Source: Amoebophrya sp. A120 (Eukaryota; Protista; Dinoflagellata). Taken from it: 64,000 nucleotides of DNA. The position numbers and the translations under genes are program-made. The notes beneath the pieces are model-generated. The model was not told where the DNA came from and ran no database searches. It saw nothing but the letters and a program-made list of their open reading frames with translations. Location of the stretch: positions 6,373,207-6,437,206 of the forward strand of contig CAJINV010000005.1 in the NCBI GenBank assembly GCA_905178155.1, in the 5' to 3' direction. Numbering within the stretch: position 1 is the stretch's first letter; each line of letters opens with the position of its first letter. Shown in pieces: positions 1,123 through 64,000 of this stretch.

Positions 1123-4100
1123 CTAGGCCCACCCTTCTACTTCACCAACATGGCCATCGCTCTCCCGTAGAAGCAACTCCGCCTTTTCCACGTCCCCTCC
1201 TGATCTGCGCAAAGCTTCGAGCATTCTCCCCCGATCGGTGAAGCCCCTTTTCAGTAAAGCTTCCACCTCGCGTGCCCACCACGAGACCAAAGGTCGCTGC
1301 TGTGCGGACGGGGCGGAGGAGGAAGGTGCTTGTGCCCGCCGGTAGTCGCGCCCGACCGGTTCCGCTTTTGAAGAGGCAGATGCAGAACGACCAGATCTAC
1401 CTTTCTGTTTCCGAACGACCCTCCGGGGCAGTTCCAGTTTCTGCACCGATATGGAGCCGCCACGAGTTGTAGAAGCTTTTTCCAGGAGCACGCTGGCGGG
1501 TGGATGAGTCCTCGAAGTAAAAGATCTCGATCTACTCTTATTTTTGCCAGGTTTTTTCACCCTCCGGAGCAGACCTACTCCCGGACTCGGTCCAGGACAG
1601 GTGCCGGCGTCATACTTGCGACCATCTTCCTCGCTGCTGTCGCACATGTCGGCCCACTTGTCTTCATTTGCAGTCTGCCGAAGCTCCTGTACCTCCCATA
1701 CAGTTCGAAAGAGGTCGGGCGCCCCCGGCTCATCAGCTTGTCGCTTTTGTAATTTTGGTCGTGACCTCGCGACGGCCGGATCATGGACCGCGTCGACGTG
1801 CTGGTCGGAGTAGTAGAAGCCGGTGCTGCTGGTAGAAGTTCTCATCTTGCCTCTGTCGTTTCCGCCCTCGCTGCCCTCCTGCGGATCCTCGAGAGCCGAA
1901 CCTGCCAAGCAGAGCGGCGGCTGGTAATAGCCCTCACGGAAAAACGCGGCAACGTCTTCCTTGTTCCATCTCCGTTCGCACTGTCGTTTGAAAACCTCGT
2001 CCGGCGTTAGCCCTTTCTGCCGCATCTTTTTCAGGATTCCCGACAGCGTCGCCGGCTCCACCAGTCGGTCGCGGACGCTGTGCGCCACGGCAAGCAGCCA
2101 GTAAACCCCCTTATCCGGGTGCAACTTTTCCGCTTCCAGCGTTTCGTCCACCAATCGTTCCGCTTTCTCCACGTCGCCCGCTTTCGCATGACACCCCAGG
2201 AGCATGGTGTACGTGATCAGGTCAGGCTGCACCCCTTCTCGCTTCATTTCCTCCACCAGTGCCTGTGCCTGCACCGATGTGTCCACTGTCGCTCCCGCGT
2301 AGGCAGACATCAGTGTGTTGTACGTGACCAGGTCGCGGTTAACTTTTTTATCCGCTTTCATCCTCTCCATAATCTCTTCCGCGCCCTGAAACCACGTCTC
2401 CTGGTCGTTCTTGTGGGCGTGCATGAGGATCGCGTAGGTGAAGCCATTGGGGGCGATTTTGTTTTGCGGCATATCCACCTCAAAGACCCGATATGCGGCG
2501 GATGTATCGCCCCCCCCTGCGTAGGTATGGATTGCAAAAATGTCTGGGTCTGGAAGCTTCTAAACTTGTAATGCTGTCTCTGGATTTTAAAAGAATGTGT
2601 ATTGCATGACCAGCAAGAGCACTCCAGTTTGTGCTACGCGGAGAGGGCATTTCTGATGCGGTAGAGGCATCACAAACTCCTCTAAAAATATGTGATGCTA
2701 GGGCACGCATCACAGACATCATGGGCCATGCAAAATATGCATGACAAACCTGGCAATCTTCCAGACCCAGACATTTTTGCAGTTGATAGTAGGCGCGCAT
2801 GAGCAAATTGTAGAGGAAAACGTCGGGGGCGAGGCCATCCTTGGTCCCGATCTCGTCGAACACCGCTTGCGCGCCCTCAGCGTCCCCCCGGGCCGCGTGC
2901 ATTTTCAGCAGGATAGTATACGCGCGAAGGTCCGGCCGCACCAGGCGCCGCATTCGGTCGACCGCGGCTCTCGCACCTTGCAGTAGACTATACGCTTGCA
3001 TTTCTATTTCCGCCACCGGCTTGTCGTCCTCCACCTGCTTCCCGCGACTACGACGGCAGACAGCGTTTAGTACCTTATGCCCCCTGATGACCTCCTCCGC
3101 ATTGTTGATATTGTTGGCATAAGCATGCAGTAGCGTTCTGAGCGTGATCGCGTCCGGCTCTACACCCGTACCAACCATGTCATGCACCACCTTCTCCGCG
3201 CGCTCGACGTCGCCGGCACTGCTATGGGCCTTCAGCAGCGTTGTGTAGGTGGCAGCGTCCGGTTTCAAGCCCTCACCCTGCAGTTCCTCCAACACGCGCT
3301 CCGCACCCGCGGCGTCGCCGGCATTGCTGTGCGCCTTCATTAGCGTCGTGTAATGTGTGGTGGCCGGCTGGAACCAAGGCCTACGCTTCATGTTTTGCAG
3401 GACTCGCTCCGCACCGGCGGCGTTGCCGGCCTCGGCGTAATATCCTGAGTAAAAACGTACCCACACCAGAGTCAGGATGGGGATTTTGCAACACAAACCT
3501 AGGAGTTTTGTGAGTCACGCATCACAAGTTGCACTATGCAGTGTAGTGCAGGTTAGCAAGTGCAGCCGCGTCACAGATTCATCTGCTCATCCTGTTCACA
3601 GCATCACAAATTCCAAAACACGATTGGAAATGGCTCTCATGGGGATGCGCATTACAAGTCTTCCTGTCTTTGCAAATCTGCATTACAACTCTGGTGTGGG
3701 TACGTTTTTACTCAGGATACGTAAGCCTCCAAAAGCGTTCTGTACGTGGACAGCAGAAATCTGCGGGAGAAGTCGTCCCCCTTTATTTCATTATCCACTG
3801 CAAATATGTCTGGGTGTGGAAAGTTGGAACTCGCAATGCTAGCTTTCCATTGCTAGGATTAGGAAATCTGTATTGCATATATAACCAACAAAAGCCGCAG
3901 CCTCTTTTGTCATCCGAAAACGCAGTGTCTCATGCGGGGTTCCTATCCGAAAGCGCTCTGGAAAGTTGTCATGCTGGGCTGCATCCGGAACTGTTTCCAT
4001 CATACACATTTTCGCATCACAAATTTCCAGACCCAGACATAGACATATTTGCAATTCATATTTATCTTGTGTCAACAACTCCGGGTCGTGCGGCTCGATT

Positions 4101-5546
4101 TTTTCTGTTACGACTTTTTGCGCGCACGTGATCTCTCCCGCAACAAGGTACGCCTTCACGAGAGTCAAGTAGGTGACCATGGTGGGCTTCAATCCTGTCT
4201 GGTGGTCCCCACTGGGGTCATCCTTCAGTTCGGCCAGGAGCGCCTCAACTTTTCCCACTTCGCCTCGCCTTGCGTACGCGCCCATCAGTGTGTTATACGT
4301 GTAAACGTCACGACGGATTCCTCTTCTATCGTTTTATCAAAGGGAAAAATCCCCCCTCCCCATAACTAAACGAAGTTTCTGATGCTGGATTTGCGTACAC
4401 AAATCAGGTCTGTTTTGCTGGAGAGGACTGCAGGCATATGCTAAGCCTGGGTCGAGAGGTTTTGACGTAGGGGACTAGCATGACAGATGTCGGCTCTGTA
4501 AGCCCAACAGCATCACAAACCACCGGCATAATGCGGCGGACTCTCTGGCTTTGCCTTCCCGCAAGACAGATAGGATTTGTGACCTCAAATCTGCATCACA
4601 AATTTTCAGACGAATACGTTTTCAATATGGGGAGGGGGGATTTTTCCTCTCAATACGTTTTGCATCCTTCTCAGTACTTCTTCCGCTTCCGATATCGCAC
4701 GAAAAAAGTGTTACAGTTACACATTTGTTGTCAATTCAGCAACACAAATTTCTTTGCATGAGAGAGAAAACTTGCAATGCAGAAATCCTACGGGAAAACA
4801 CCTATGAAACGAAGCTCCTATGCATATCCGGCATGACAGAGCTGGTCTGTCGTGCTTGGCCTGCAACACAATGTGTAACTGTGACACTTTTTTCTTGCGA
4901 TATCCGAAGCCTGGTCTGCGGCCGCGTACACGGTCAGCAGGCTGTTGTACAGCCGACGCAGGTTGCCCTTGCTTAGGAAAAATATGTGCGCGACTTTGAA
5001 AATAGCCTCGGCCGCGGCCGGGTTGGCCATAAGCTTCGCCTGTTCCATTTGCGCCTTCACAGGTCGCCACGGGTCGTCGTTCGCTGCCTCCTGCAAAGCA
5101 TGCTCAAGAGCATCCTCAGACAACAACTCCACCTGCTCTCGTCCTCCTCCTCCAGCCGCCCTACGACTACCACTCCTACGGCTGCTTCCGTTATTGTTCC
5201 CTTTCCCCGGCAGAAGGTGGTCTTGCTTCGTCCCTTTACCGCCCCCGCCCTTGGTCGACGTCGTGTTTCGACCCTTGACATTACTCCCCTTAGTACTTCC
5301 TCTCCCCGGAGGACCGGTCCCCCCCAAGAAGCCGCGCGCGCTTTTGAAGTCCTCCGACGTAGGTGCGAACATGTTGAGCCTGAGAGCTGCGACGCCCGTA
5401 GGTGGCACTGTCACGTTTGGCGGCGCAGTCAGTACATGATCAACACAGGGAAAAAACAAATCACGAACCAAAAAAACCCCGAAACCAACCAGACCTGGGC
5501 CAACAGGCAAGGCGCGGCGCGTTGCCATTGACGAGGAGACGCGCAT
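1123..5546 (-). CDS. Pentatricopeptide repeat (PPR) protein with C-terminal UBA-like domain; 6 exons split by 5 introner elements
   Basis: Many PPR-like 35-aa motifs (PDLITYTMLLGCHAKAGDVEKAE, PDAATYTTLLKAHSSAGDVERAE, RDLVTYNTLMSAYA). Removing 5 elements plus one TSD each gives a continuous frame (LMRAY|AGGGDT, LLEAY|AEAGN, MQND|RRGIRRDVYTYNTLMGAY). Start at first ATG (5546) is tentative. Confidence 0.88.
2526..2788. mobile_element. Introner family A (non-canonical intron)
   Basis: TIR TATGGATTGCAAAAATGTCTGGGTCTGGAAG / CTTCCAGACCCAGACATTTTTGCAGTTGATA; TSD GTAGG; frame restored. Confidence 0.93.
3441..3719. mobile_element. Introner family B
   Basis: Perfect TIR TATCCTGAGTAAAAACGTACCCACACCAGAGT; TSD CGTAA; frame restored. 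Confidence 0.93.
3792..4060. mobile_element. Introner family A
   Basis: Family A TIRs; TSD TTCAT/TTTAT; frame restored. Confidence 0.88.
4335..4655. mobile_element. Introner family C
   Basis: TIR TATCAAAGGGAAAAATCCCCCCTCCCCATA / TATGGGGAGGGGGGATTTTTCCTCTCAATA; TSD CGTTT; frame restored. Confidence 0.92.
4693..4902. mobile_element. Introner family D
   Basis: TIR TATCGCACGAAAAAAGTGTTACAGTTACACA; TSD TCCGA; frame restored. Confidence 0.92.
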
Positions 5547-7205
5547 TCTTGTTTTGCTTTTTCCTTTCCGATTCCGTTTCGAGTCCAAAAATAAAGAAAT
5601 AGAAAATAGAACTGACGCAAAAGATAGCTTAGAGTTCTTGTAGATGAATCTTTTTCGCCTTGATACAGATCAAGCGGAGTGGAGAGTGAGAAAATTGATT
5701 ATGATTGTAGTTGTGTTGTATATTTTTCCACCACATAAACCAATTGAGGGCTGCCTCATCCACCTCTCCGCAGTAAAATTTCGATGATTTATAGACTTTA
5801 GTTTCGCAACAAGATTGATTCAGACAGAAGTTTTCGCCGTGGTCATACAACGAACTACACCAAAAGAGATACACTTTGCACGATTTTTATTTTTTCCGAG
5901 CGGATACTAGTAGTAAGACAAACAGTTTTCGTTGTAACAACGTCGACAAGGTTTATAATCCAAGGACTTCGCAGAGGTTCAAAATATTGTAACTTTGATC
6001 CTTAACGACCTGTTCGATTTTTATACAATGCACGGACAACATCTTTCGAGAAGTAGTAGTTGCGGAAATTCATGAAACCAGCAAGTTGTGAGTGACATAG
6101 CATGCTCCGACCACTTTCACCGATGAAACAGAATTTAGATTTACCATCAAGGAATTCCAATGATTCTTCCAAGGCTAGTATTATTTTTTGAAGATTTAGT
6201 AGATCTTTGCACCGTTCTTGTTCTATTCGGAAAAATTAAAATACCTTGGGATCTTGCATCAAGTAGATGACCTTGACGTTGACCATTTACGGTGCGAAAA
6301 CAACCAATTATTTAGATGACCATGGGATCTTGCATCGAGTAGATGAGTGATGACCTTGTTGTTGACGTTGACCATTTAAATTTATTCTCATTGTGTGAAA
6401 ACAATAATCCCCTGCGAAATGAACAAACCGACTCAGTGTTCTATCTTCTTGAGAGCAACAACCGATACATTCATAATCGAACTTGAACTTCTGTACTCGT
6501 TTATTTTGACCTCCTGGCTCCTTCCAAGCGGAAGAACGGTTCGGTCGTTCTCGGGGTGCTTCTTGATCTACTTCATGGCATCTAAGTATACATATTTTCA
6601 AAAGCAAAAGTGTCGGGTCAACATGTGCAGCTGCCTCCACGGGGGGCCATGACAACGGTGCAAACAGGTAGTTGCCAGAAGCGCTGCAACAACGCTCGTG
6701 CGTGCACGAACATTCGAAAGATGCGGACGAGATGTTGGATTAGGCGCTTCGCCTCCTGCTCCTTCAAAGGGGTAACTAGTACAGGCAAGCAGTGTATACA
6801 ACTATTTATCGCATTTGTGGGCATCAAGCAGTAAATGTAAATGATCGCAAGCACAACAAGCTATGTGTAGTATGTAGAACGAGAAGGAGAACCTGAACCT
6901 CGCTTGTTTTTGTTAGCATTAAAAAAAAAATAAGAAGCCATCAAACGCGGCGAAACAAGAACGGTTGATTCCCTACAGCTGCAGGGCTCTCCATCTGCTA
7001 CTGCTTTCTCTATCTGCCAAAAATAAATAGGAAGGTATTACTATCGTACATATGTCAATAAAATTCAAATTCAAAGTGATAGTGAAACTCATGCGGTGCA
7101 TGAGCAAGATCGTTGTGGACCTCTACTGCCCGGACCCTTGCTGGCGATAGTCCTCGTCCCGGCGAAAAAAACGACCTCACTACTCCCACCTCCGCGCAGT
7201 GCAAA

Positions 7206-10200
7206 CTAAGTACCGGGCTGCAACAGGAAGGAGTTCATCCGCGCAGGAGTCCCTGTCCCCTCGAAGACGACCTCCCGAGGACTCCGGTCCCTTCCCCGCA
7301 TGGCCGCGTTGTGTTCCGCAATCAGGTTCAAAAATGTATTTGACGGCGGCCCGCGATACAGAACGGGATAATGATGTTGCTCTTGATGTTTCGGGAGATC
7401 TTGTTGAACATCTCCGGCTAGTGTTCCTGCTGCACCGGCAGGAGCACCATAACTTCCCGTAGTTGCGTTCACCACACGATTGATTGTGGGCTGATTGTTG
7501 TGGTGCAACTGGTGGGGAAGGTGAATCACTTGCGGAGATTCCCGCTCTTGTTCTAGTAGTCCACTAGCAGGAGCACCTCCACAGCTCGGAGAAAATATCA
7601 CGCAAGATTTTTGGGACGGCGGGGGCCCGCTCCTGGCAGAGGACGGTAAGAACCTTCCCGGGACAACTGCTGGTCCCTTCGGGCTTCGGCTCCGACTCTT
7701 CGCGCGCTTGATGTTGAATTCTGTTGTTGACTCCAAAATGTTATCACCATTTTTAATACCGCCGGGGCTTCTACTTCTTCTACTTCCTGCAAGTAGAACA
7801 GCTCTTGCACCGGAGGGGGAAGACCTACTTCGTGTTCGTAGGTGAGAACTGGCACTACTTTCATCTATCCTGTTCCCAGTTGGCGACACGAAACGCGTCG
7901 AAGTACTGGCGCGGGGAGAACTTCTCGTCGCGAGTTGTGAAAATTTCTGTTCCCACATTTTCTCCTGCTCCTGGAGCTTTTGCTGCCATACGGTTTCTGA
8001 CTCGAGACGCCGGGCCTGATCAGGTGGAGAAGATAATTGAATCACATTTTTCGGTGGATGAAGATGAATTTATGTGTACACCCTCTGTTGAAGACGCGAC
8101 ATGCTGCACCCGTTCACTTGGTATGTAAGAGTTTGAAACTATATGAAAATTTCCCAAAAAATCACAAGCAACTTCCAAAGTACCTCCGCCGCCTCCTCCA
8201 GTTCCCGCATCTTCTCCTTCATTTGTTCGTCGAAAGCTCCCGCATTTCGCGCGTCCTCCTCCGCAATTCGCTTTTTGAACATGCTTATGGATTGCAAAAA
8301 TGACTGGGTCTGGAAGATTGCAACTTGTCATGCTAAATCCGACTCATGCAAAAATCTGTGTTGCATGAGTACCAAAAGCTGTCCACTTTCGACCAAGTTG
8401 GGAGGGAGAATCTCATGCAGGATAGGCATGAAAGAAACCTCAGAGACTCTGTCATGCTAGGTCCCGCATGCCAGACCTCAACCTCAAGGGTCATGGAAAA
8501 CCTGCATGACAAGTTCACACTCTTCCAGACCCAGACATTTTTGCATTTGATAATGCTCATCAACGCGTTGAGCTCCGTCTCGTGCTCCGCTTTCAATTTT
8601 TTCACTTGCTCCTGTAATTCCCAATTTTCCCGTTGTAGCGAGTTTGCTCTGCGACCGTGTCTGTCCAAATTCCGCTCCAGGTCCTGATACGCAGAAATCG
8701 CGTCTTGCTTTTCCTCCAGAGCCTTTTTCACAAACAGGTCCCGCTCTTCCTCAAATTTCCTGCGCAGCTCCGGAATTTGTTTTTCCTCCAGAATTTCCTT
8801 CTCCCTCAGCCACTGTTTCTTCTCCTTGGCCAGAAAATCCCGTTCGGAACCTAACTTCGCGTTCTCTGCCGCATGGAATTTCACCTTTTCAGTTAACTGA
8901 TTCACCTCGTTTTTCATGGAGTCACACACCTGTGTGAATTCCCTCGCTTCGGTGTCGTTCTGGTCGCTGAGCTGCTTGCATTTCAAATTCAATTCCCGCA
9001 GCTCGATCTCCTTCAAGTAGTCTAATTCACTTTTTGTCTGTTCCAAGCAGTCCGCAGTCTTGTTGAGAAGCGTTGTTTTCTCTTCCAAGTCTTTCTCCAT
9101 CAATTTGTATTTTTTCTTCATCTCAATGTTCTCTTCCAAATACTGTTTGCTATCCCGTTTCTATCGTGAGAAAAAAGTGCTACAGTTACTTACACACTCT
9201 GATGGAAGACAAGCAAGACAGACAACCTCTGTCATGCAGGAAATGCTTGCCTGTCTCGGTTCGTGCGTTCTCTTATAGTCTGCGCATTACAAGTTTTCTT
9301 TGCCATGTCGAGCGAATTTATCATGCTGAAATTCCATAGCAAATGTGTAACTGCAACCCTTTTTTCCTGTGATAGTATCGCCTTTTTCCGTTGGTGGATC
9401 AGTTCCCGCATCTGATCTTGCAAGTCCAGGATGAATTTCTTCTGGAAATGCTGATTGCGGGAGTCGGAAAGCTCGGAGAGGTACTGGTAATTCGGCTCTG
9501 GTGGTGGTGGATGTTGATGTGCGAGCGAATGTTGAAACTGCTCTCGTCCACCACCTCGCGGGGGAGTCGTATTTTTCACATTTTTACCTCCAAATCTACT
9601 TCTTATCAACAACTCTGGAGAACAAGTTTTTCGCCGGCGGCTGGGTGATGTTACGGCGCTATTAGAGTTTATTTCACCGTTTCTTCCAAATTCGAGGCCT
9701 CCTTGCAGCTGGGTAGAAGAAGTGTTCCCTGGGCTGATTCCCCGTCTAGTAGTAGTTGTGCGACTTGTTCTGTTCCAATTGGTGCGCGCATCAACATGTT
9801 GTCCTTGTCCTGGCGACAGAGATGAAAGTGGAAAGGGCAACCGAAATTGATTCGTGTCGTTCTTCCTTGAAACTAGAGCCGTTTTCTTTTCATCAGTATG
9901 AAGTAGATCATTATCCGGCGGTGGCGTTCGGTCGGAAATCCCGGATTTTGCGGACAGTTTGACGCTTTTACTCAAAAAAACCCGGCTCTGGGTCGAATCG
10001 AGCACAAAATCTGCTGCTGCTGCACCAGCAGCTCCCGTAAAGCTAGACCCACCGCCCGTCTGCGTATTCATTTTCTGAGCAACGTCCGTTCGCGATTGAT
10101 CGTGTTCCGCCAGCGCGTTCCTTGGCGACTTCGCACCACGAGATGGAGTTCTTGTAGTAGATGAGAAACTTCTACAATTCGGCACCCCAAACGTCGGCGG

Positions 10201-48001: not shown

Positions 48002-48198
48002 TTTCGCGTCTCGCCCTCCGCGGCGAGAATGTACTACGAGTGGTCCCGGCAAAGATCAATTAGGGGATGATGAAGAAAAAAAAGTCCGCGCTGCCCCTTT
48101 TTATTCCACAACTCTACGTCTACGTCCCGGCTCCGAATTGCGTTACTCCACCTCGCGGTCTGCTCGTCCTTGTGGTGCTGAGACGACAGTACTGCGCG

Positions 48199-50216: not shown

Positions 50217-50834
50217 ACATTGGACGGCGCCTCGGGAAAGTAAGAGGTCTTCGGCGAAGGCCGAGCCTCGGAAGTGGACGATGAAACAGCGCGGGGGAAC
50301 AAGTTAAAGTTTCCATTGAGATGTAGTTGTTGTTCAACATGTTTGTTATATCCTCAAAAAGAAAAAGCGCGCAGAACAGGTTCATGCCGTACTTAATATC
50401 ACGGTTGGTTCCTGAAGCGAACAGTGCTGAGCTCGAACTCTGAGAGATGAGAGGTAAAGGCTGTAAAAACTTTCTTATGCAAAAATCTCTGACACCGAAC
50501 TGTCTTCCGTTAATTATTTGTTTCTGCGCTTGTGACGCAGTCGTGGTGGTTTTCACGACTGCCAACAACATCTAGAGAGAACTACGCGAACGCGATGTGT
50601 TGTGCGAAAGTTTTATTCCAACATTTGTCTTCATGCTCGGCTGCATATACAAGACTTTTTAAACGAGCTGAAGCTTTTGTGTCCTCAACATCGAGATCGA
50701 GTAACCATAAGTAGTACTGGCTGAAATACAATCAAATGACTGCTACGTACAAAACTCCCTGTCCGATACAGCAGCTCATCTCCATCTCCAAACTGGGAGA
50801 AAGAACGGCATGCAGCGTAAGTACCCACGTCGAC

Positions 50835-52358: not shown

Positions 52359-53394
52359 TTTGTTAGACAATTTTGCACGACAGATCGGAGCTTGAGCTTA
52401 TACACACACACGCATGTTGACAAATGCCTGGCACATCGAGTAGATCTGGTTTATACATGTCGGCACTGAGCAAGTTTGTCGGAACAAAAAGTAAGACGAT
52501 GAATCGATAGTCTACTGTGAAATCAAAAAAAAACCTTTAAAACTCGCCGCAGCTTTTTTCTCCCCGGAGTTATTGTCGTGGTCCTTATTTGGGCCTACAC
52601 TCGGACTGCGCACTGCCTCAGTCACGTCAACATCGAAAGAGATGCCCAGAAGCCGAAGCAGCCTCACAAAAACCAGGCTCATTTGGATTCGCATCTGCTT
52701 CCTCTGCCGCGAGACAGACATTTTTGTAGAAGTGAAAAATCTGAATCAGGCTAGTTAGTACAACTTAATAAATAATAGGGACGTACAACCTATTGGAAGG
52801 GAAGCTGAAGAGGGAAAAATTTCACTGTTCTGTTTTATTTCGTCGCCGAAAAATTCTATACACAGTTGTTGTTTTGTAAAATACGCATTAGTACGGGACT
52901 TTTATGTACAAAATCGTGAATAAATGGACGAGCACAGGGTTGTTCTGTGTCTATCGCACGATAGGTTTCCACGATAAATTAGTCCTTCGACGTACGAAAA
53001 CATTAAAGAGAACGAGGAATGCACGACGAAACAAAACGACACTGCCCAAACTTGAGGTACACCAGGTAGCCGTGTGGCGCACGAAAAAATAATGACCAAA
53101 AATTGTCATCGTATTTACGCAACGAAACGCTACACACACACAGCGAGCAACTGATAAGATCCACGATTTCACGACGACGACACACCATCCTCGCGCCCGC
53201 CAACAACAGAGGCAGTCAAGTATCATCTAAAGCGCATCAAGAACAGCACTATTGCACATTTTCATTTTTGCACCGGCACAAGAAACGCGATCGGCGTAGT
53301 GTGAAAGTGTTCTTTATTTCATTCGCACTGGCTTCTTCAATACTCAGATCGGCTCTAGTACTTAGCCAGCCTTTCGACTAACAACTTGTTTCTA

Positions 53395-56300
53395 TCAACT
53401 TCTGGTCATTCTAGTTTTTTGCGAAAAAAACGCTCCATCTTGAAAGAAGAATGAGACGAAGGAGGTGGCGCCAGCTTTCCTCTCCGTAATCACCCTCGCG
53501 TCTGAAGATGAGGCCGCAGCAGTCGAAGTCGCAGGCCGAATTATAAACTCGCTCTGCTCTACTTCTTTGTTCCCGCAGACTTTATTGCCACCGCTTCCTC
53601 CCGCGTGTTGTAAATAGTTCTTCTTATTGGCATTGTAGTTAGACCGACTGTGCGCCTTGCTCTTTTCCAAAGCCGCGAGTAACCGCTTCGGCACGGGTAA
53701 AAGGTCGTCGCTTTTGCTAGTATTGTTTGCGGCCTTGGCTTTTCTATTTTCTCGACCAAAATTCACTAGACCCGGAGCTGCATCTCCAAAACGTGGTCCT
53801 CGGGGCGGCGGAGGAAGTGGTTTTCCTATGGTGCTGTCCGTGTGGTCCTCTCCTGGAGGTCTTTCTTGCCCGCTGTTTTTACACTGTGATTGTTCCGCTT
53901 CCGGCTCTTGTACCGCACTACTTCTCGTCATCTCTCTCTTCCTCGAACCAACGTCAAACGCGTCAATCAAGCTCCACACCGTTTTGATCTTCGAGTTGTC
54001 CACTTTCACCAACACAGCGTCCTGCAACCGGTTTTTGAAGTGATTCGGTTGGTACTGGGAGTGGTTTCTTTCAACGTGTGTAGTCGAGGACGAGGAAGAG
54101 GATGTTGTTGATTCACCTGATTTAGAAGCGGATCCAGTCGACGACCTACTTGCGGAAGCAGAGCTGACAGTGGCCGAGGAAAGCGCTCCACCTACTTTTG
54201 AAGACGAGGAGCTGGCTGAATGGTTTTTTGTCGTCTCGAGGAGGGCAAGAGTGGTGGTGGTGTTGCTTTTTTCATACGTGGCGTCGTCCCTGTTATCGGC
54301 ACCCTCTCCATTTCGACTTTCTCTGAAGTAGCCGCTGCCAGAATCTTCATTTTCTACCGGAGCTGCGTGGGTGCCGTCGTCGTGCTCTTCTTCATCTTCT
54401 TGCGATCTCCGCATGACAAAGAACGGGTACTTCCATTGGGGGTCGAAGTCGGCGAAGTTGGTATTTTTCACCACCTCCTTCACAAATTTTCTCACCTTCT
54501 TGTTCGTGTCTCCTGCTCCTTGATCAGGATCCCCCGCGGCAGTTCCGCTTGACAATGCGACGTGGTCGTCCTCGGGAGACACAGCGATTTTCGTACTGCC
54601 TTTGCTCATCATGTCGTGCCGCGTTCGAAGACCATGCTCGTGAAGATCCTCGGCTTGTTCTCCACCCTGGCTCTGGACTGTCGCCGCCAAAATCTGCCGA
54701 AACAACGTTTCTGCTCCTTCACGACGAAGTAGCTCCGTAGCAGTTGCAGCCTGAGACATATGCTCATCGTCCGCAAGATGGGCGTCTTCGCCTTTCATAT
54801 TTTCGGGGAGACCACAAAGGTAATCGAAATTTACCGTGGCTAAATCAAGGAGCTTCGTAGTATTCGCAGCAGCGGTCGAGGTGTTTCTATTTCGATTTCC
54901 GTCGACTGTTGTCTGCAATATTAAATTCCGGTTCACAATCTGCGGTATCCGCCTTGCCAGTCCTTCCGCAGCTGCAGTAACGGTGGATAATGTTTGTTCC
55001 GGCGCTGCTGCCTTCCTCGCTTCCTCGTCCACCAGACTCCAGCTTGCAGACTCGTCGTGGTCCTGCTTCGAAAAGTAAGTGCGGGCCCCAACATCTTCTC
55101 GTCCTCCTGCTTCACGATCTTCTTTTGTGACAGCAACTTCTTCTACCGACGAGCTGCCGGAAGAAGAACTCATCTCCTCCCCGACCTGCCTCCTGCCACG
55201 ACAATAATTTTCCACAATGTCCGCAACGATCTCCTTCACCACGCCCGCAATCATCTTCCGCTTGTGCCGGCGCTGCGGCGTCCGGAAGGGAAATCTGGAC
55301 AAGGGCGAGCGGGGACGCTGCCGGTCTTCCGCTTCCTGCTTCGTAAAGGGCATGATGGGGTCGACAAACTTGTAGAGCGTCTTCTCCCTGTCACTCTGCG
55401 CTCGAGCTGCATTTGGGAAAGTAGACCCGCCTGTTCGAAGATGCAACGGTGGTCCTGGCATCATTTGGGCGCCAACATCAACTCCTCCTTCCTTCGCCTT
55501 GACTTGCAGTTTACTCGGTTTATTCTTCGAAGACGATTTCTTCAGTCTGATTTCAAACGCCGGAATCGGCGGCCGCGTTTGCACCGAATCCAAATCCAAG
55601 GATTGCAGCAGCTCACTCGCTTCTGTCGAGTTTTTCTGGTTCTTATCAAATGCAAATATGTGTCGGTCTGGAAATATGTGAAATTTGTCATGCTAATCTG
55701 ACATGTTGGCCCTGCGCTCTGTATTGCGTGGCAACGAACAGCTTCCCCTGTCCGTCATGCAAGAACGCTGTTTCTCATGTAAAATACACAACGCAGAGCC
55801 AGGAAAAAATCTGTCATGCTTGGCGGTGCATCACAGCATGCTCATATCATTCACTCACATGCATTACAAGTTTCCACCCCCAGACATATTTGCAATGCAT
55901 AGTTCTTCTGTGCGAACAAAAAGCGGTCCACCTCGTTCTCCGCTAGGGTTGCGTCGCAGGTATGACAGTGCACAACTCCCCCTCCCCCTCATTTGTCATG
56001 CAAAATCCCAAACCCAGTTGCAGCCTTGTAGCACTGTTGGCATGACAAATGCTGCAAGCCGAAACAGTACTTCGGTCGGCGCATAAATTTGTCATGCACA
56101 GGCTCCAGGAGTGCTGGCTTTTGTATTGCTGTTCATGCCATACAAATGAGGGAGAGGGGGTGTTGTGCACTGTCGTAGCAGGACTCGGACTTTTCAAAGT
56201 CGAAGGGCTTGAAGTGGTAGTCCAGGGGTAAATGAGGTTTTTTGTTCATAGTGAAAGTGTTTCTGTTTGATGTTCTGGGAGATGAGAAAATGACCGCAGA

Positions 56301-59300
56301 TGAACAAGAAGAAGTGTTGCTGCTATCGAAGTCGAGCGACAGAGTGCGAGGCGTGTGGAGGTCAGATTCGACTTGCTGTTCACTGTCTTTGTCATGCGGT
56401 GATGAAAAAGGGGATTTTGTCATGCCAGACCTCCTTACCGATTCCACCGACTCCGAATCGTCCTCGTCTTCCTCGGTGGTTGACCCGGGTAAAATCCAAT
56501 CCATCGTGTGTCGTCCTTCGAAAAAAAGGCTGTTTTTGCGGTTGTTTGTTGTTGTTCCTCCTGCAACTCCTCCTACTGCGCCACGAATAATTCTACTTGG
56601 CGGCTGCAGGCCTTCCAAAGGCAGTTGTACCGCGCCGATTTTTCGAAATACTTCACCGAGAACTTGTTCGCCGCTGGCATTGCTGCTCGAGCTGCTGAAG
56701 AGGTCGTCGGAAGTGGAGGAGAAGTCCTCAAGATCTTCTACCAGTGTTTGAGGTCGTGCTGGACCAGCGGTGATCCCCGGTACTGATGTGTCCTGCGGCT
56801 GATGATTGTGTTCTTCTTCTTCATCTCTCGCTCTCCTATCCAGTTTCGCATCACAAATCAGTTTTTCCAGCAATTCTTCGTCGAAATTCGCAACCCGTTT
56901 AAGCAGAAACTTTGCCAGTTCCGGGTGAAGTTTTTCCGGACGGAGGGGCTGTTCCTTTCGCTGCTGATCTTCTCTGGTCGAACCAGAATTATGCTGAGAA
57001 TCAGGTCCACCTGCGCCCTGACCTGTTGAGTCGGCATCTTCGTGGTCCAGAGCGACACTATCACCGACGTTTTTGCAATCCCCGAACGGAACAATCTGCA
57101 GATTTGTGAAGTCTAAATTTTCGAGATCAGAAGTTCCTCTGCCGCCCCTTTGGTCTGAAGTCAAAGTGATTCCCGATGACAGGTTCTTCGCGTTTTTTTC
57201 ACTAAACAGATATTTCTCCACAACAGTCCGATACACCTGATGCACAACCGCGTCAATCAGCTTCGCCTTTTCCTTCACATTTACCAGCAAAACCTCAACG
57301 ATTTTCATCACCGCCTGCTTCCGCGTTTCGGGGGACATTTCCGCTTCTTTCACGTGCTGTTGGATATTAAACTGCTTGTCTTGCAAAACAGTCCTTGTAA
57401 CCTTCTGCACGATCTGTCTCGCGTGCCTCCGATCCGTGTTGTACCGTTTCAACAACTTGATTAAGTGCTGTCCGAAGGGAGAAGTAGGGGTTTGATGTCG
57501 TGAAGCTGCTGTGCTTGTTTGGGTCGTTGGCAGTTGATGAAAACCACGACGACCTTGGTCCTCTTCTGTAGATGAGACCGCGTAGTTCCTCTCTTCTGGT
57601 TCGTGCAAAATCTCGGACACCACAAAAACCTTCTCCTTCGCGGCACCGTTCGGGTAGAAAATTTGTTTTTCTGCAATACGGAACGGGAGACGTGTCGTTT
57701 TAATATTTCTCGTGCCACCAGTGCTCTTCCTGGTGCAGCTGCTGTCGAAGGGAGTAGAAGTAGTACTTCTTGCTCCTGCATTTGTTCCACCAACCAGAAC
57801 CGGATACTCGTACAGCGGAGGAGTTGCCGGTCGCGGAATGTCTTTCTGGATCTTGTTCACCGTTTCCGCCACCTTGACTAAAGCGGTGGTTTGCAGGAGC
57901 TCTGTGGACGAGGACCCAGTAGTACCACCACGAAAAGGCACGACCGCGAGAATCGGGTTTTGGTTCCGCAGAGCAATGGCTTCCTCCTCTGCAGTCGCGA
58001 TTGTGCCCGTGCTGATCGTGCTTGCGGTGTCTTGGTGGTGGTCTGGGTAGTTGTGTGCTCTTTTGTTTTTCCTGGAGGACGAAGACGAACTGGAGGTGGA
58101 AGATGAGGAGAGTAAAAACGCTTCGTCAAAGTGCTTGATCTTTTCCTGCAGTTCCAAACGCCTGTAATGGTCATCGACAGAGCCAAAATTTGTTTTCAAG
58201 GAGAAATTTGTCGATGACGAGGTGGGAGAGGACGCAGCAGAACTAGTATCGTTCCCACCACCTTGAAGTCCCCGGCCTAGAAACAAAGATCCCGATCCGA
58301 AACTCGCTTTTTCAGCATCATCTTCGTGGAGGCGGACTTGTTGGTCAGCCGTAAAAAAGCCTCCTCCTTGTTGGCAGCTCCCACCTGTTTCTGCCGGCGA
58401 GGGGGCTGCGGAACCGGAGAAAGAACTCGCTTTCGACGAAGAAGAAGAGGAGCATTTACTGCTCGACTGCACTTCCAGCATGTGATCCCCCTCGTCGAAG
58501 ACTTTGTACGCGTGTTTCCTCTCCAATTCAAACTCCAGAAACTTCTCCGTCGGTTTCCGGGTGAAATCGTTCTCGGGCTTATGCTTTTCCGCATCCACTT
58601 CAAACCAGTCTCGGTTTTTCTTTGCATTCATCAATCGAAATTCCTTGTCCGTTTCCAACCTTTTCTGCTTTTCCCGGTATTTCTTTACCCAGATTTTCAG
58701 CTTCTCGTGCGCGTTTTCCTCTTTCTGCTTCTTCTGCTTTTCTAAAAGGAGCGGGGATTTTGTCGTGTTTTGCCTTTGAATCAGCCTTGCTTTTTCGTTG
58801 ACATTTTTCTCCTGCCGTGCCAGCATCGCGGTTAAGGTTGGACCCTGCAGGAGATGTTCAGTGCCAGTGGGGGAGGGAGGAGGGGAGAGTAGACCAGCCG
58901 ATGTTGTACTGACGAGGACTTTGTCAGGCTTTGCATCCTGTTCCTGCGAAACTTCTGTTGCAGACGAAGAAGAGGAGTGTTCTTTGTCATGCTGATCTAC
59001 TTGGGCGGTCGCACCATCAAAAGCAGCGTCCTCCGCTTCTTTTCTCTTCTCCTTCACCATAGCCAGCACCGTGTTGAAAAACGCCGTTCCGGATTTTATT
59101 GTGAGGAAAAATCCCCCCTCCCCATATTGAAAAGGTATGCTTCCAAAGCTTTGCGTTGCTGATTTGAGGTCACAAATCACATTTGTCTTGCAAGAAGACA
59201 AGGGTAGAAGCTTCCGCCCCATTATGGAGGCGCTTTGTCATGCTGTTGGGCCTAAAGGGGAGCCGTTTGCCATGCTGAACAACTAGACCCATACGCTCGT

Positions 59301-62300
59301 AGCTACCCTTGGTATCTGGCCGCAGTGCCTTCCTGCAATACAAAGCTGATTTGCGTACACAAATCCAGCATCAGAAGTTCCGTTTTGATATGGGGAGGGA
59401 GGTTTTTTCCTTTTGATAGATTTTTTCAAAGATTTCCAACCACGTCGTTTGCCTTCGCTCTTCATCAAGTCGTCCGTGTCGTGCTTCTCTTGGTCGTGTT
59501 GTGGTTTCGCACGAGCAGCAGCTCCAGACGTTGTAACACCTTCGTCAATTATGTCGATGACGTGATGCTCTTTCCCACCGTCCTCCGCCCCGCCCGCGTC
59601 CTCCACATCTTCTAGATCCACTACCTGTCTCCTCCGTCTCGCGAGAATCTCGCTCTGATGCGGCAACGGCTCGAACACGTCACGGAAATTAACTGTTGCA
59701 TCCTCGTGAACATCCGCATTTCCAGCTATCGCAGAAGCCTTATCACCACGGCCTCCTCGATCAAGATCCAAAACCTCTTCCACCATTCCCTTTTCCACAA
59801 CCCTTTCCCCGCAATACTTCTTTTCCGCCACCCTCTTCCGCATGCCCTCCAATTCCCGAAACGCAAGCCACTCAACGAACGGGAGATCTTCTTGTCTCAG
59901 CGTGTTTTGCCGGTAGTTTTCCTTCAACCGGTGGAGCAGCAAATCCTTTTTCGTGTTCGAGCCGGAAATGAAGGGGTCTTTTCCACCTTCTTTTTCGGAA
60001 GCTGTATTCATCCGAAAAACTTTTTCCAAACTCGGCTTCATCACATCCTGATACAAAAACTTCTCCCCGTTGTCGTCAAAGAGTCGCGGGATCTCCCCGT
60101 CGTGAATCGCCAGGGTTCTCGGGTCGCAGTTGGCAAGCCGGATGCGGTCTGGGGAAAGCGAAAGACTTCTTCTAGCACGATGACCGTCCTCGTGTTGTCC
60201 TTTTCTCACGGAAACAACCACAGAACAACGAGTCGTGGGGTATTGCGGCGGGATTAGCAAGGTTTCGATGTCTGCCCGACGTAACTTCCACTGCTTCACG
60301 GTACTGACGGGAATCGCAAATTCGTCGTCCTCTTCGTCTTGTTGTTGTTTTCCCGCAGCTCCTGCTTCTCCGCTGTGCACCATCCCGTGCTTCAATGGGA
60401 AAACTGGTTTGTCGAATTCCGACTCTTCAGCAGCAGCGGTTGTCTTGTTCAACCCGTAAATCGGATGTCGGTACTGTTTTTCAAACTGCTTATTGACTTC
60501 TCTCTGCGCTAGCTCCGCTACTCGATTTGCTTCTTGCTCCAGGTAGTCGTGGTCTTTTTTGTCATGCAAACGCTGCGTAATTCCAGCTGACGGTTGTCCG
60601 TCTTCATCCTCACCCTCAACACCCCCCTCTCCCGCCGATGTTCTAGTTGGAAAGTGCTTGAAATACCCCCGGTCAACGAAGTGAAAGCCCGTCCCGGTTT
60701 GAATATGCACTGCAAAAGTGTCTGGGTTTGGAAGAATGTCATGCTTGTCTCACATGACAGCTGAATCTGCAATGCGTGAGCAGGAAGCGAGCCTCTTGCC
60801 TGTCATGCAAAAGCGCAGTTTGCCATGCGGAAAGCGAAACACAAAGGAGCCCAGAAACTTGTCATGCGTGGCTGCGTATTGCAGTACGCGGCCCATCATT
60901 GGCAAGCTAGCATCACAAGTTATTTCCAGACAAAGACATATTTGCATTTGATATTGAAAGTTCTTCGACAAATTCAATTGCTGTTTCCTCATCCGGTTCC
61001 TTTCCAGTTCCTCTTTCTGAAACTGAATCTCTTCCGGGTTTAGAATGGTATCCCGCCGGAGTTTTCGCTTTAGCAAGTAAGAAGCGGAAACGGGGCGGTG
61101 GGTTATTGATGCTCCTGTAGACGCAGTAGTTGTACTGGCATTGTTTCTTCTCAAATCCAGTTTCTTATCGTCCAAATTGAACAAATCCTGTTGCTTCGCC
61201 TTTTCCTCCAAAATTTTTTCGATTATCAAATGCAAAAATGTCTGGGTCTGGTGGAAGATTGTCATGCTAGTCTGGCATGACTCTGCACTCTGTATTGCGC
61301 GGCCACCAAGAGGTCCTCTTGCCGGACATGCAAAACCGCAGTTTCTCATGCGAAATACGCATCACAGAAGCACGAAAAAACTTGTCATGCTTGGTGGCGC
61401 GCATTCCAGAGCACTTATTGTTCACGGACTTGCATCACAAGTTGCCAGACCCAGACATATTTGCAATGCATATCCGTCACATACTTCGTAAATCGGTTAA
61501 AATGCGGATTCAAACTATTCGGCGGAGCGGAAATCGGTCGGGTACGCTGGAACTGTGGTGCGGAGGAACCGCGAGAAGTCAGCACGTTGTTCGGCAGCAG
61601 AGAAGCTTCCTGCAACGGTGGTGGATCGTCGCCATTTACTCGCTGTTCGTCCGTCCCGTCAAGATCAAAATCCGGGGTTGACAAAGAAGAAGCACCATTC
61701 CTTTCCTTTTTATCAATCGCCACAATCCTTTTCTCGAACGCCAATTTCTCCTCTTTAATCTTCTGTGCTTTCAACATTTCCGCCAAATTCCCCGCTTTGA
61801 TTTCCTCCAGTTGTTTCTTGTTCTCGGCTGATTCTGTGAAATCCAAATACTCGAATTCCTCGCAGTCATTTATCCCTTGCTTCGATACCTTCAAAACCGC
61901 ATTTTCTACCTTCGTCGCTTGCGGTTTCTCCTTTACAAAATCGCCCCGGGCTAACTTGATGAATTTACTCATGTTCAACTTGTACCTTCGTAGAGAAAAT
62001 TGTGAGCTCTCCCTTGCTTTTCGCTTCTCTTCTTCCGCTAAAGATTGTGCTTCTCGAATCGTCTCTTGGATTCTCCGCTGTTCCAGTTCTTGGTCAAACT
62101 GGGGGCCTCGGCCGATCACCAAATCGGACGAAGAGGAGGAGGAGACAACATCATCGGCGGTGTTTTCCTCATGCTCCCTCCATCCTCTGTTCTCATACAG
62201 TTCCGGAGACAGAAACTCCATTTTCCCGATCATTTTCTCGACCCGCTTCCCAGCCGCTTCCATCTTCCGCTGCAAGTCCGTGTCGATCTGCGTTAAGACT

Positions 62301-64000
62301 TTCGGGGATAAATGGTTTTTATCAATGAGGTTCTGAAGATCAAATTCGTTGAACTCCTGTTTTTCTGCTAGTTGTTTTTGGAGAGAAAATTCCTGTTCTT
62401 CAATCGTCATTTCCCCGTAGTTGCGAAGAAACTCTGGGTTGTCGATTTCTATTCCGAAGTTTTCCGTTTCTAATTTTTCCAATTCTAATTTCAATTCGTA
62501 TTCATCGTAATCTGTCACACCCCCTGGCTTCTGCTCGTCTAAGTAAAATCGCTTCAGTTGTTCTGCTTTTTGGAGTCTTTTTTCTTGGATCACGTTCTGG
62601 AAGAAGTCTCTGCGGAGCTGTTTGTCGCGGGTGGGAAAGTCCCAGATGTTGGTATTTTCTTGGTCGGTTGTTGTTTGCGCCTCATTCTCATGGTCCAACA
62701 TTTGTTTCAGACCATCGCCGTCGTCGTGTTTTCTTCGCGTTACTTGCGTCTGCTCCATCTCTGCCTTCAACCTCTCCAGCGCTTCCTTGATCCGGCCGGG
62801 TGAAGCGATATCCAGCGGGTGGACGGATATGCGTTGCAAATCTGTCTGGGTCTGCAAACTTGTGATGCTGGTTGGCGAATCTTGACGACGCGCCAATTGA
62901 TGGCCCAGCATGACAGGTTTCGGAGGTACTAGGTGTTGTAAATTCTGCATGCGAAACTGCGTTTTTGCATGACAGAAAAGTGAGGCTCCTTTTGGATGAC
63001 GTGCATGACAGTTTTGAGAATCATGCTACCCGAGCATCACAAGTCGCGCACTCTCCCGGACCCAGACATATTTGCGATGCATAACGGAAACCACAGATCG
63101 ACTGTCGTTACTGTTGGCGTCGTCCCAGTCCACAGAAGTTTCTTCGTCATAGAAACGCTTTTTCGATTTGAAGTTGTTTTTTATCGTATTGTTCAGCATC
63201 GGTATCTGCGACGCAATGGGGTGCTCGATCCGGTGGAGGGTTGTCGGGTGGAGAGGCTGTCGCTGTAGTTCTTGCTTATTGATACTTTCGTCCTGCTCGG
63301 TGGAATTTGTATTGCGATTTTTCATCCCAAGACCACTGTCGCTGTCGTGCTGGGACAGTTCGTCGTGAACAGATCCATCTTCACCGCCCTCGCCGGCGCC
63401 CAACTCCCGAAAGCTGGATACAACCACAGTTTCGACGAAACTCCTCGCCGCTTTCCGGCCTTCGAACCAATCCAACCGGTCTTGCAGTTCTTTTTGGATT
63501 TCCTCGTTTGCGATGCGGTCGCAGGACGCTTGGAGGACGGAGTGGACGTAGGAGTGGATGATGTGAGCCTGGAGTTGATGATGTTCCGCATGTTCTAGTA
63601 GTTGGTCCTTCTCACCATCTTGTTCATCTTCCGACGGTAAAAATGCTTCCACAATGTCGACTGCAGGAGCTGCACCAGATCCAGAACTACGAGCATGCGT
63701 CTTCATCTTCCCCTGACGTTCTTCAGACATCAACCTGGAAGACGCAGAGGCAGATGAACTCGCACTGTCACTGCTGCTAGAGCTGGAAAATATTGAACCA
63801 CCACCGCCACGCCTCCTCCGCGCAGCACGACTTGCTTTCTCCAAGTTCCGTCTTCCCAGTTCGCGGGCCAACTGGTCCTGGCTCGGCTGCACGATGTCCG
63901 AAGGACGGGCGGTCGGGGACAAGCCAAAAGTAGAAGCGGAAGCTTTTTGTAATGCTGCACCGGCTCTTCTTGCGGGAACACCGGTTCTCCTGTCATGCGC
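53395..64000 (-). CDS. Very large charged/low-complexity protein, 5' end outside the window; at least 6 introners
   Basis: Successive long ORFs join in frame (VVS|VHPL, YVT|EKI, KNFQ|TGT, LKKS|GTA, SES|CDA, QKN|QKN); frame open to the window edge. Confidence 0.82.
55644..55901. mobile_element. Introner family A
   Basis: TSD GTTCT; frame restored. Confidence 0.9.
55961..56177. mobile_element. Introner family E (short form)
   Basis: E TIRs, right end GTA variant; TSD GCAGG; frame restored. Confidence 0.9.
59097..59418. mobile_element. Introner family C
   Basis: TSD GATTT; frame restored. Confidence 0.92.
60704..60953. mobile_element. Introner family A
   Basis: TSD TTGAA; frame restored. Confidence 0.92.
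61224..61472. mobile_element. Introner family A
   Basis: TSD TCGAT/TCCGT; frame restored. Confidence 0.88.
62828..63083. mobile_element. Introner family A
   Basis: TSD ACGGA; frame restored. Confidence 0.92.

Follow-up and report, generated by a model that had tools for sequence, protein, structure and literature searches.

The whole stretch of DNA analyzed here (the window, 64,000 nt of Amoebophrya sp. A120) contains elements that are removed from coding sequences as the element plus 5 nt, and one fixed cut fits every informative joint: the intron reads N-TAT…ATA-NNNN, starting 1 nt before the element and ending 4 nt after it (register k = 4). With moderate confidence, we attribute this to removal from pre-mRNA by a relaxed U2-type spliceosome. 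The elements are introner elements of A120, with matching features, and both they and their removal have already been published (PMC7789003), as the original prediction, made from the sequence alone, had recognized; each of three exon queries matches one A120 protein at 100% identity. What is added here is the fixed cut register, which is of interest because neither the intron borders nor the mechanism was settled in the 2021 paper.

Elements and target duplications

We catalogued 59 elements, which amount to 22.4 kb (35% of the window). A curated first pass yielded 51 elements of the TAT…ATA type, and eight older ones were added via transcript joints and public proteins; most elements were found by requiring TAT…ATA, a bias toward intact ends that we count against our preferred explanation. 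The prediction that about 50 elements act as removed introns holds for the 48 that interrupt exons but not for the other 11, of which seven are nested in larger introns and four (26265–26556, 26859–27112, 27353–27654, and 27671–27952) lie outside any mapped gene, in the gene-free stretch at 26 to 28 kb; a probable composite element there (26219–27140) was excluded from the counts.

The flanking repeat is exactly 5 bp, as predicted: per-position identity is 40–46/51 inside it and 8–17/51 outside, and the repeat is perfect in 28 of the 51 first-catalog elements. Pairs that combine a perfect 5-bp repeat with a terminal inverted repeat (TIR) identity of at least 15/20 occur 20 times in the window and not once in any of 100 second-order Markov simulations. 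Among the 48 exon-interrupting elements, the repeat is perfect in 26, identical at 4/5 positions in 10, and further decayed in 12, including five at 2/5 and two at 0/5. The TIRs themselves are imperfect: positions 4–8 pair in only 21–36/51 elements. Positions 11–13 are A in 44–46/51 5′ ends and 45–49/51 3′ ends, which fits the published definition of A120 introners (an inverted repeat of TAT, seven variable bases, and at least AAA, with a 3- to 5-nt direct repeat at the boundary [PMC7789003]). Over 30 positions in the 51 elements, stems contain 85 G-U versus 67 A-C mismatches, which is no clear excess.

The 59 elements form seven clusters (two to nine members each) and 22 singletons, with nested copies partly joining two clusters. 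Families occur in both orientations within genes, and other loci contain relatives, over 80% of the element length, of 37 elements in the window; a similarity scan at a low threshold yielded only noise. No Pfam match was found in the frames scanned inside long elements, and of two long candidates for an autonomous partner (at least 1.5 kb) in the fetched loci, one has no 100-codon frame and the other no Pfam match. The TIR motif has no matches in a viral contig collection, and masked window DNA, searched for an empty-site ortholog, has no match in the 135 fetched loci of another assembly. By their TIRs, fixed-length target duplication (TSD), and absent coding capacity, the elements are non-autonomous TIR DNA transposons (MITEs).

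Precise removal

All window genes lie on one strand (minus), which is also counted against our preferred explanation. The PPR-repeat gene (1123–5669) has a 1,059-codon open frame once five elements are removed, at 2526–2788 (263 nt, perfect TSD), 3441–3719 (279 nt, perfect TSD), 3792–4060 (269 nt, TSD mismatched at its third sense position, k = 3–5), 4335–4655 (321 nt), and 4693–4902 (210 nt). The predicted removed lengths of 268, 284, 274, 326, and 215 nt are exactly those skipped in a single 5,029-nt contig of run X1 on the minus strand, the three pieces listed for it being mismatch-free (joints include 2520>2789 for the first element and 3786>4061, both=2, for the third). As for the proposed rebuilding of PPR motifs on removal, three of the five junctions lie inside PPR-like repeats according to our own HMM, a weak model made from two sequences. 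None of these five lengths is a multiple of 3, a property that does not extend window-wide: 18 of the 48 removed lengths are multiples of 3, and the other 30 are not, so that retention would break the frame. It was also correctly predicted that no sense-strand register of the first element yields GT…AG; an apparent GT…AG label on its read joint was rejected, as it belongs to the antisense strand.

X1 is a probable RNA run (its library type is guessed), with a gene-shaped depth of 34 over positions 1–6003 and 0–7 in element-free bins beyond, and with 15 of 30 bins empty in a second stretch. Its contigs skip all 12 bridged elements by exactly the element plus 5 nt; seven of these junctions come from the PPR gene and the elements at 14905 and 15471, and five come from the 38- to 42-kb part of the P0002 gene. 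That 10 of the 15 exon-interrupting elements in the second stretch have no bridging contig, and that X2–X4 have no joint, reflects lack of cover and not of splicing. The public A120 proteins P0001, P0002, and P0003 agree at 36/36 junctions, in support of the predicted precise removal, and contigs and proteins together support 41 of the 48. Because open-frame length fixes removal only modulo 3 (element plus 8 being equivalent to element plus 5), the exact lengths derive from the contigs and proteins. The raw-read RNA runs X9–X11 leave the genes uncovered and match element ends only. Among the joints listed, there is no back-joint of the element plus 5 nt of the kind that a full-length circle would give, although contigs drop rare forms.

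The gene for P0003 (1,748 aa; 7209–13641) contains four elements (8286–8552, 9162–9374, 12302–12614, and 13346–13553), each removed as its length plus 5 nt, and an ordinary GT-AG intron of 168 nt (8016–8183; +2T, +3A, and T at −7). The gene for P0001 (1,411 aa, MORN repeat; 14775–23587) contains 12 elements, starting at 14905, 15471, 16245, 16758, 17120, 17866, 18239, 20099, 20743, 21042, 21460, and 23369. X1 joints and P0001 both show removal of 276 nt for the element at 14905–15175 and of 314 nt for that at 15471–15779. An old element at 17120–17508 (TSD 2/5, k = 4–5 from the protein) has weakly pairing ends (z = −1.3), and a 1,747-nt element at 21460–23206 carries a nested insertion with long internal direct repeats; neither of the two frames scanned there matches Pfam. 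A joint at 15173>14905 that carries one extra base is explained neither by a full-length circle nor by a simple lariat read; another copy may be its source.

The gene for P0002 (1,699 aa; 29363–48001) contains 20 element-type and two GT-AG introns. Its old element-type introns include those at 30276–32098 (1,823 nt, ends TAG…ACC, TSD 2/5, k = 3–5), 32635–33660 (1,026 nt, TSD 3/5, k = 2–5), 33743–35218 (1,476 nt, ends TAT…ATT, k = 4–6), and 36674–37305 (632 nt, ends TAT…ACA, k = 2–5), all from P0002, and at 41153–41927 (775 nt, TSD 2/5, k = 3–4), from P0002 and an X1 contig. Two further old elements, both with a TSD of 0/5 and both seen in X1 and P0002, permit k = 4 only: that at 38428–39047 (TAC…ATG, with a nested element at 38655–39018) is removed as 625 nt (joint 38423>39049, both=0), and the composite at 39454–40818, with nested elements at 39735–40032, 40112–40402, and 40516–40785, has ends that pair no better than shuffles. 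X1 and P0002 also cover the elements at 39086–39418 (TSD 2/5, removed as 338 nt, k = 2–4, joint 39081>39420) and 40836–41131 (TSD 3/5, k = 4–5 from the contig). P0002 accounts for the remainder, namely 37373–37861 (TSD 2/5, k = 2–5), 42355–42645 (perfect TSD), 43472–43723, 43771–44041, and seven elements separated by 44- to 118-nt spacers between 45105 and 47742 (starting at 45105, 45502, 45890 [k = 3–5], 46340, 46646, 47061 [k = 4–6], and 47432 [k = 2–6]). Both ordinary GT-AG introns of this gene contain nested elements: 42776–43396 (621 nt; +2T, +3A, −7A) holds one at 42865–43163, and 44098–45033 (936 nt; +2T, +3A, +4T, −7A) holds two, at 44135–44351 and 44734–44995. A separate 258-aa gene at 44 to 48 kb was rejected, P0002 and the contig giving one 1,699-aa gene, and a frame at 41576–43056 was rejected on the same evidence.

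Frame evidence alone places the element at 51832–52048, in a 446-codon frame, and the six elements of 55644–63083 (starting at 55644, 55961, 59097, 60704, 61224, and 62828), whose removal gives a frame of at least 3,007 codons that extends past the window end.

A fixed cut register

The X1 joints allow registers 3–5, 2–4, 4–5, 3–4, 4, and 4, and only k = 4 fits them all; the two junctions that allow k = 4 only come from one contig with a depth of 3.4, one side of which is only 24 nt. The k = 4 product reproduces P0001 and P0002 exactly, and of 32 junctions, 15, 15, 9, 6, 0, 4, and 21 exclude k = 0 through 6, respectively; P0003 adds k of at least 3 at the element starting at 9162. The agreement of these public proteins with k = 4 may not be independent, as they could derive from the same RNA data. 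At decayed duplications, the mRNA retains the first four bases from the upstream copy and the fifth from the downstream one, and hence the intron is N-TAT…ATA-NNNN. Families occur in both orientations, and the mirror register (k = 1) is excluded at 45890 as well as at its opposite-orientation relative, 47061, so that it is the transcript that sets the register. The direct repeat, which had been predicted to guide removal, is not the guide, because the elements at 39454–40818 and 38428–39047, with 0/5 identity, are removed as their length plus 5 nt at the same register.

At this register, the 48 exon-interrupting elements all have +2T, +3A, and −7A, with +4T in 45, −6T in 45, and −5A in 42; +1 and −4 to −1 are unconstrained, with no drift toward G at +1 or AG at the 3′ dinucleotide, which likewise counts against our preferred explanation, and 30 different end combinations occur among the 48 introns. 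The original prediction overlooked that a normal splice signal survives in part, as +2U and +3A, once the register is fixed. The predicted absence of GT-AG ends stands for 47/48 elements, the sole exception being the GT…AG intron at 17866–18175, and it coexists with three ordinary GT-AG introns in the window genes; in the other assembly, 4/159 have GT/GC…AG ends. The three ordinary introns have the donors GTATGT, GTAAGT, and GTACTT, and only two of them have A at −7, which again counts against our preferred explanation. The first exon base is a purine in 26/48.

The A at −5 has changed in 6/48 elements versus 0/96 for the As at +3 and −7 on the same strand (p = 0.001, Fisher), which argues that base identity is kept and not terminal pairs. 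An independent set (159 strand-called of 283 elements from 135 loci of one other assembly) points in the same direction as a trend only (4 versus 11, two-sided p = 0.12): changes at +2, +3, +4, −7, −6, and −5 number 1, 1, 5, 2, 0, and 6, such that +2U and +3A (158/159 each) and −7A (157/159) are retained but not invariant. We found no statement of a fixed register in the literature passages searched.

Mechanism of removal

The mechanism that we propose builds on three observations: elements of several families, with TIRs and a fixed 5-bp duplication, lie in genes in either orientation; contigs and public proteins show removal of their length plus 5 nt, which restores the pre-insertion coding sequence at any target; and at decayed duplications the intron is N-TAT…ATA-NNNN. 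The first element bases would then act as donor +2 to +4, comparable to the donors of the three ordinary introns, whereas +1 and the final two bases would go unread, and the internal TIR stem may draw the ends together in young copies. More speculatively, the conserved −7 A would be a candidate branch nucleotide from which the 3′ cut could be measured. Table S4 of Farhat 2021 has T at +2 in all 18 listed predominant non-canonical end motifs of both strains, and the text of that paper reports 83/89 spliceosomal proteins and U2, U4, U5, and U6 in A120, with no U1 snRNA and no minor spliceosome (PMC7789003).

Tentatively, we take this a step further: the Amoebophrya spliceosome may be blind to +1G and the terminal AG, reading U+2, A+3, and the −7 A (probably the branch) and cutting by ruler, such that a symmetric TAT…ATA transposon with a 5-bp duplication would make a perfect intron without a scar, wherever and in whichever orientation it inserts. 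If so, the seemingly random ends of tens of thousands of A120 introns would follow from this one rule, and so, probably, would the TT-NN introns of strain A25. Were the spliceosome responsible, two of the most conserved eukaryotic splice recognition steps would be relaxed, which would explain how a transposon colonizes exons without coding cost. The pattern N-TAT…ATA-NNNN predicts the 5′ base of the intron, a candidate branch A at −7, and the essential bases, and a fixed register would allow most borders of non-canonical introns in A120 to be annotated without ambiguity.

The main rival to a relaxed spliceosome, possible but in our judgment unlikely, is that the same RNA-level register is set by separate, Euglena-like machinery (a nuclease and ligase or a second RNP) that recognizes the stem together with some terminal bases and counts outward from them by 1 nt and 4 nt; the intron would then be released as a linear molecule or a full circle. 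Such machinery would suit the fully free +1 and 3′ dinucleotide, which the spliceosome does not normally tolerate. The geometry of Euglena introns (5′-N3CDG…CH′G-N5-6|R) is comparable, and its authors suggest non-spliceosomal factors (PMC12501133); U1 snRNA is reported as undetected in A120 (PMC7789003). The end duplex is also stabler in the sense than in the antisense strand in 9/12 old elements (p = 0.007, post hoc), but no such excess is seen across the full 48 (p = 0.12), and strand-biased mutation could produce it. Moreover, +2U and +3A also occur in the GT-AG introns within these genes, and they persist where the bases that pair with them have changed; in three old spliced elements, the end duplex is no better than in shuffles (z = −0.2 to −1.3), and the predicted fold of 38428–39047 leaves its two ends unpaired. 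Guidance by the TIR stem, as originally predicted, is therefore only partly supported: even the first element, a strong hairpin (z = −6.5), has its six terminal bases unpaired in the predicted fold.

It is very unlikely that the 5-bp repeats and TIR stem guide a recombination- or slippage-like excision that cuts anywhere in the repeat. Perfect (26/48) or 4/5 (10) repeats and a removal that always equals the element plus one repeat length would be expected of such a process, but elements at 0/5 (two) and 2/5 (five) are removed at the same length and at a register that is fixed, not sliding. Template switching at hairpins flanked by short repeats is a known artifact class; the first element, as a strong hairpin with direct repeats, is a classic substrate, and the transcript evidence comes entirely from cDNA or from libraries whose type is unrecorded. 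That the skips are reverse-transcriptase artifacts, with the real mRNAs processed otherwise, is nonetheless highly improbable, given that skips occur without a repeat and at one register and that skip chains restore frames of 1,059 to 3,007 codons when 30/48 lengths are not multiples of 3. We assign an equally slight probability to IES-like excision from DNA in the transcribing stage: the assignment of X1 as RNA is a guess, and the element ends resemble transposon ends, but X1 depth does not resemble that of genomic DNA, both the cut and the conserved bases show an asymmetry along the transcript that is independent of element orientation, and the recorded RNA runs X9 and X11 contain element ends attached to different flanks. 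We know of no separate germline nucleus in this lineage.

Comparison with known introns

The elements resemble the A120 introners of Farhat 2021 in organism, TAT + 7 nt + AAA repeats, a 5-bp direct-repeat example, families, RNA-seq removal, and variable end dinucleotides (PMC7789003). That paper describes splice sites as variable relative to the hairpin, with the border unknown (Fig. 3 legend) and inverted repeats 1–5 nt from the sites (PMC7789003). In our elements, by contrast, the duplication has a constant length of 5 bp, the cuts lie at set distances of 1 nt and 4 nt, and the rule extends to decayed copies of 0.6 to 1.8 kb, some above the paper's 1,000-nt window. The A120 introners of Gozashti et al. 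2025 are likewise diverse, TIR derived, and present at tens per gene; the text consulted deals with transposon classification and with one family that has integrase-like frames rather than with the cut register (PMC12130899), and no autonomous partner was found here.

Euglena non-conventional introns also have a MITE-like origin, ends that pair, direct repeats that mask slidable junctions, a fixed distance between an internal motif and each cut, and a longer unpaired 3′ tail (PMC12501133, PMC11282704). Their signature, N3-CDG…CH′G-N5-6|R, differs from the N1-TAT…ATA-N4 found here (PMC12501133), and they are reported as circles, not lariats, with no donor-like +2U/+3A described in the available text of these papers (PMC12501133, PMC11282704). 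The non-canonical introns of Fritillaria borealis are also TIR/TSD derived and are removed by an altered U2 spliceosome, but a few end motifs dominate there (AG-AC and AG-AT; Henriet 2019, via PMC11282704), in contrast with the 30 combinations in 48 introns here. In Entamoeba invadens, diplomonads, and parabasalids, the branch A is similarly near-fixed, at −8 from the 3′ cut, but GT-AG and a full AYURAY are kept, as opposed to the single conserved A, a candidate branch, seen here (bioRxiv 10.1101/2022.06.08.495308). Of the features of U2-type introns, GT/GC…AG ends are found in 1/48 elements, and the donor bases +2U and +3A are found in 48/48.

Element content and insertion signature

Three exon queries from the window each matched one protein, assigned to A120 by source name, at 100% identity (P0001, P0002, and P0003), and every mapped window gene lies on the minus strand. 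A search for TAT...ATA pairs and similar ends, followed by curation, recovered a first set of 51 elements; eight older, longer elements, drawn from contig joints and the public proteins, bring the total to 59, or 35% of the window (remnants near 26219, 28758, and 43228 were left out of the count). Exons are interrupted by 48 of the 59, and the other 11 are either nested in larger introns (7 elements) or situated in the gene-free stretch between 26 and 28 kb (4 elements).

The flanking repeat is exactly 5 bp (per-position identity among the 51 elements of 40 to 46/51 inside versus 8 to 17/51 outside) and is unbiased in composition. Pairs combining a perfect repeat with at least 15/20 TIR identity number 20 in the window versus 0 in 100 simulated windows. 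No transposase partner was found in the interiors of long window elements or in long candidates from the loci of another assembly. The 9-mer GCATGACAA, which also has related variants, occurs 56 times inside elements versus 6 times outside across the whole window; it probably marks a binding site for a transposase or other protein. Every tested feature of A120 introner elements, as given in Farhat 2021 (PMC7789003), is present in the window elements, a known class rediscovered, as the original prediction had anticipated.

Removal from probable transcripts and from proteins

In X1 (a probable RNA sequencing run present as contigs), a 5,029-nt minus-strand contig, mismatch-free in the three pieces listed, skips exactly the 268, 284, 274, 326, and 215 nt predicted to be removed from the PPR gene; another contig lacks 276 and 314 nt. 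Within the 20 kb examined, these skips account for 7 of 16 elements. Of the 27 joints there, 15 are listed; besides the 7 skips, they include 8 that fall inside elements or run from one element to another and probably derive from copies at other sites. A third contig (depth, 3.4) spans 5 of the 15 exon-interrupting elements located in 38.4-48.3 kb. All 12 skips equal the element plus 5 nt. The in silico products match P0001 (12 elements) and P0002 (20 elements and two GT-AG introns) exactly, and the mapping of P0003 requires four introns of element length plus 5 and one GT-AG intron. The annotation that supplies these proteins was built on RNA data, and their independence from X1 cannot be assumed. 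Overall, 41 of the 48 exon-interrupting elements are supported by a contig or protein and 7 by an open frame alone.

One X1 contig joint leads backward from 15173 to 14905 and includes a single extra base (element 14905-15175; depth, 6); it does not match what a full circle or a simple lariat read would give and may represent another copy. The element at 21460-23206, removed as a single 1,752-nt intron in P0001, carries a nested insertion that contains a pair of ~440-470-nt direct repeats (LTR-like by eye), and no Pfam match was found in the two frames scanned.

Position of the cut

We number the upstream (sense) repeat copy U1-U5 and the downstream copy D1-D5, with k denoting how many U bases the mRNA retains. 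Where the repeat is perfect, the cut position is masked; it becomes visible where the repeat has decayed. X1 joints allow k of 3-5 at element 3792, 2-4 at 39086, 4-5 at 40836, 3-4 at 41153, and only 4 at 39454 and 38428. Among 32 junctions of P0001 and P0002, k values of 0 through 6 are excluded 15, 15, 9, 6, 0, 4, and 21 times, respectively; k=4 is the sole survivor, and the intron is therefore N-TAT...ATA-NNNN.

Excision guided by the direct repeat, as originally proposed, is unlikely: at both junctions that fix k=4 alone (39454 and 38428), repeat identity is 0/5, so the repeat is a consequence of insertion that allows removal without a scar, not a guide for the cut. Element families occur in both orientations in the window, the mirror register (k=1) is incompatible with 15 of the 32 junctions, and opposite-orientation relatives 45890 and 47061 agree on the register, which together tie the cut to transcript direction, albeit with all window genes on one strand. 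This directionality also argues, indirectly, against elimination of the elements from DNA, as does the gene-shaped coverage of X1, although the RNA nature of X1 is a guess; we consider DNA elimination unlikely, and the same holds for a reverse-transcription (RT) artefact.

Conserved bases at the intron ends

With k=4, the 48 introns display 30 end-dinucleotide combinations, with GT-AG occurring once (1/48), which separates them from ordinary U2 introns and, along with the skips of element plus 5 nt (12/12), bears out the predicted precise removal without GT-AG. Positions +1 and -4 to -1 are unconstrained; +2T, +3A, and -7A are invariant (48/48 each), and +4T (45/48), -6T (45/48), and -5A (42/48) drift. 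Because the hairpin places +2 opposite -5, +3 opposite -6, and +4 opposite -7, each pair holds one fixed base and one drifting partner: A is changed in 6/48 cases at -5 versus 0/96 at +3 and -7 (p=0.001). The three GT-AG introns of the window all begin with GTA, and two of them have A at -7. Table S4 of Farhat 2021 (PMC7789003) has T at +2 in 18/18 predominant non-canonical motifs, which fits the +2T rule genome-wide in both strains.

As an independent test, scanning metagenome_contigs with a TIR motif yielded 135 loci (L001-L135), all from one other assembly, in which window element families recur at up to 97% identity. A terminal-triplet-blind search found 283 elements there, 159 with a called coding strand (77 plus, 82 minus) and 124 uncalled. 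Among the 159, changes at +2, +3, +4, -7, -6, and -5 number 1, 1, 5, 2, 0, and 6, such that none of +2, +3, and -7 is strictly invariant; the direction matches that of the window but is non-significant alone (4 versus 11, p=0.12). Pooling both sets, the outermost TIR base differs in 1 case at the 5′ end versus 12 cases at the 3′ end (p=0.003). The sole strand-called elements with an altered -7 (L001:2873-3123 and L065:1598-1850) both have G at +1 and hence a GT donor, possibly a compensation (n=2). A 2,459-nt element with a perfect TSD (L068:476-2934) has a 415-codon frame with no Pfam match; it looks like a nested foreign insertion rather than a demonstrated transposase.

Contribution of the stem and likely machinery

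The first element has a strong predicted hairpin (z = -6.5) with the terminal six bases per side unpaired, and TIR positions 4-8 are paired in only 21 to 36 of 51 elements. Guidance by the TIR stem, the other half of the proposed mechanism, is only partly supported: end duplexes are more stable than shuffles in young copies but not in three old spliced copies (z = -0.2, -1.1, and -1.3), and the predicted fold of 38428-39047 does not join the ends. Sense and antisense duplex energies do not differ across the 48 (p=0.12); 9 of 12 old copies favor the sense-strand duplex (p=0.007, post hoc), for which strand-biased mutation is an alternative cause. The stem probably helps removal, with no strict need for it apparent.

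We lean, with slightly better than even confidence, toward removal by a U2-type spliceosome with relaxed recognition. The requirement for +1G and a terminal AG would be dropped, the donor would be read through U+2 and A+3, and the 3′ cut would be set six bases past the conserved A, which may be the branch. As described in Farhat 2021 (PMC7789003), the A120 spliceosome is near-complete, with U2, U4, U5, and U6 present and U1 not detected. The main rival, which we consider less likely, is a stem-ruler machinery distinct from the spliceosome, like the one suggested for Euglena (PMC12501133). The window introns lack the signature given there for Euglena non-conventional introns, and they appear to work like a mix of U2-type and Euglena-type introns. 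The Fig. 3 legend of Farhat 2021 (PMC7789003) terms the intron border unknown, and a fixed register is absent from the literature passages searched, although figures and further papers could hold it; a concrete register rule makes the open splicing question testable.

Gene structure around P0002

The GC-rich (62-65%) stretch at 29400-36800 consists of P0002 exons and old introns, both long, and contains many spurious frames; no Pfam matches were found in the frames scanned there. Three old element-type introns (30276-32098, 32635-33660, and 36674-37305) occupy the same position of a repeated P0002 unit, before NLxxKC, and were probably duplicated with the protein unit before diverging to 0.6-1.8 kb. 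Upstream of the P0002 start lies a tandem-like array of ~45-50-nt units (48100-48950). Within 47900-52400, short peptide motifs are common to the first exons of P0002 and a 446-codon gene (50838-52397), suggesting local duplication. At 38428-45033, some elements lie inside other elements and some inside GT-AG introns, a twintron-like arrangement.
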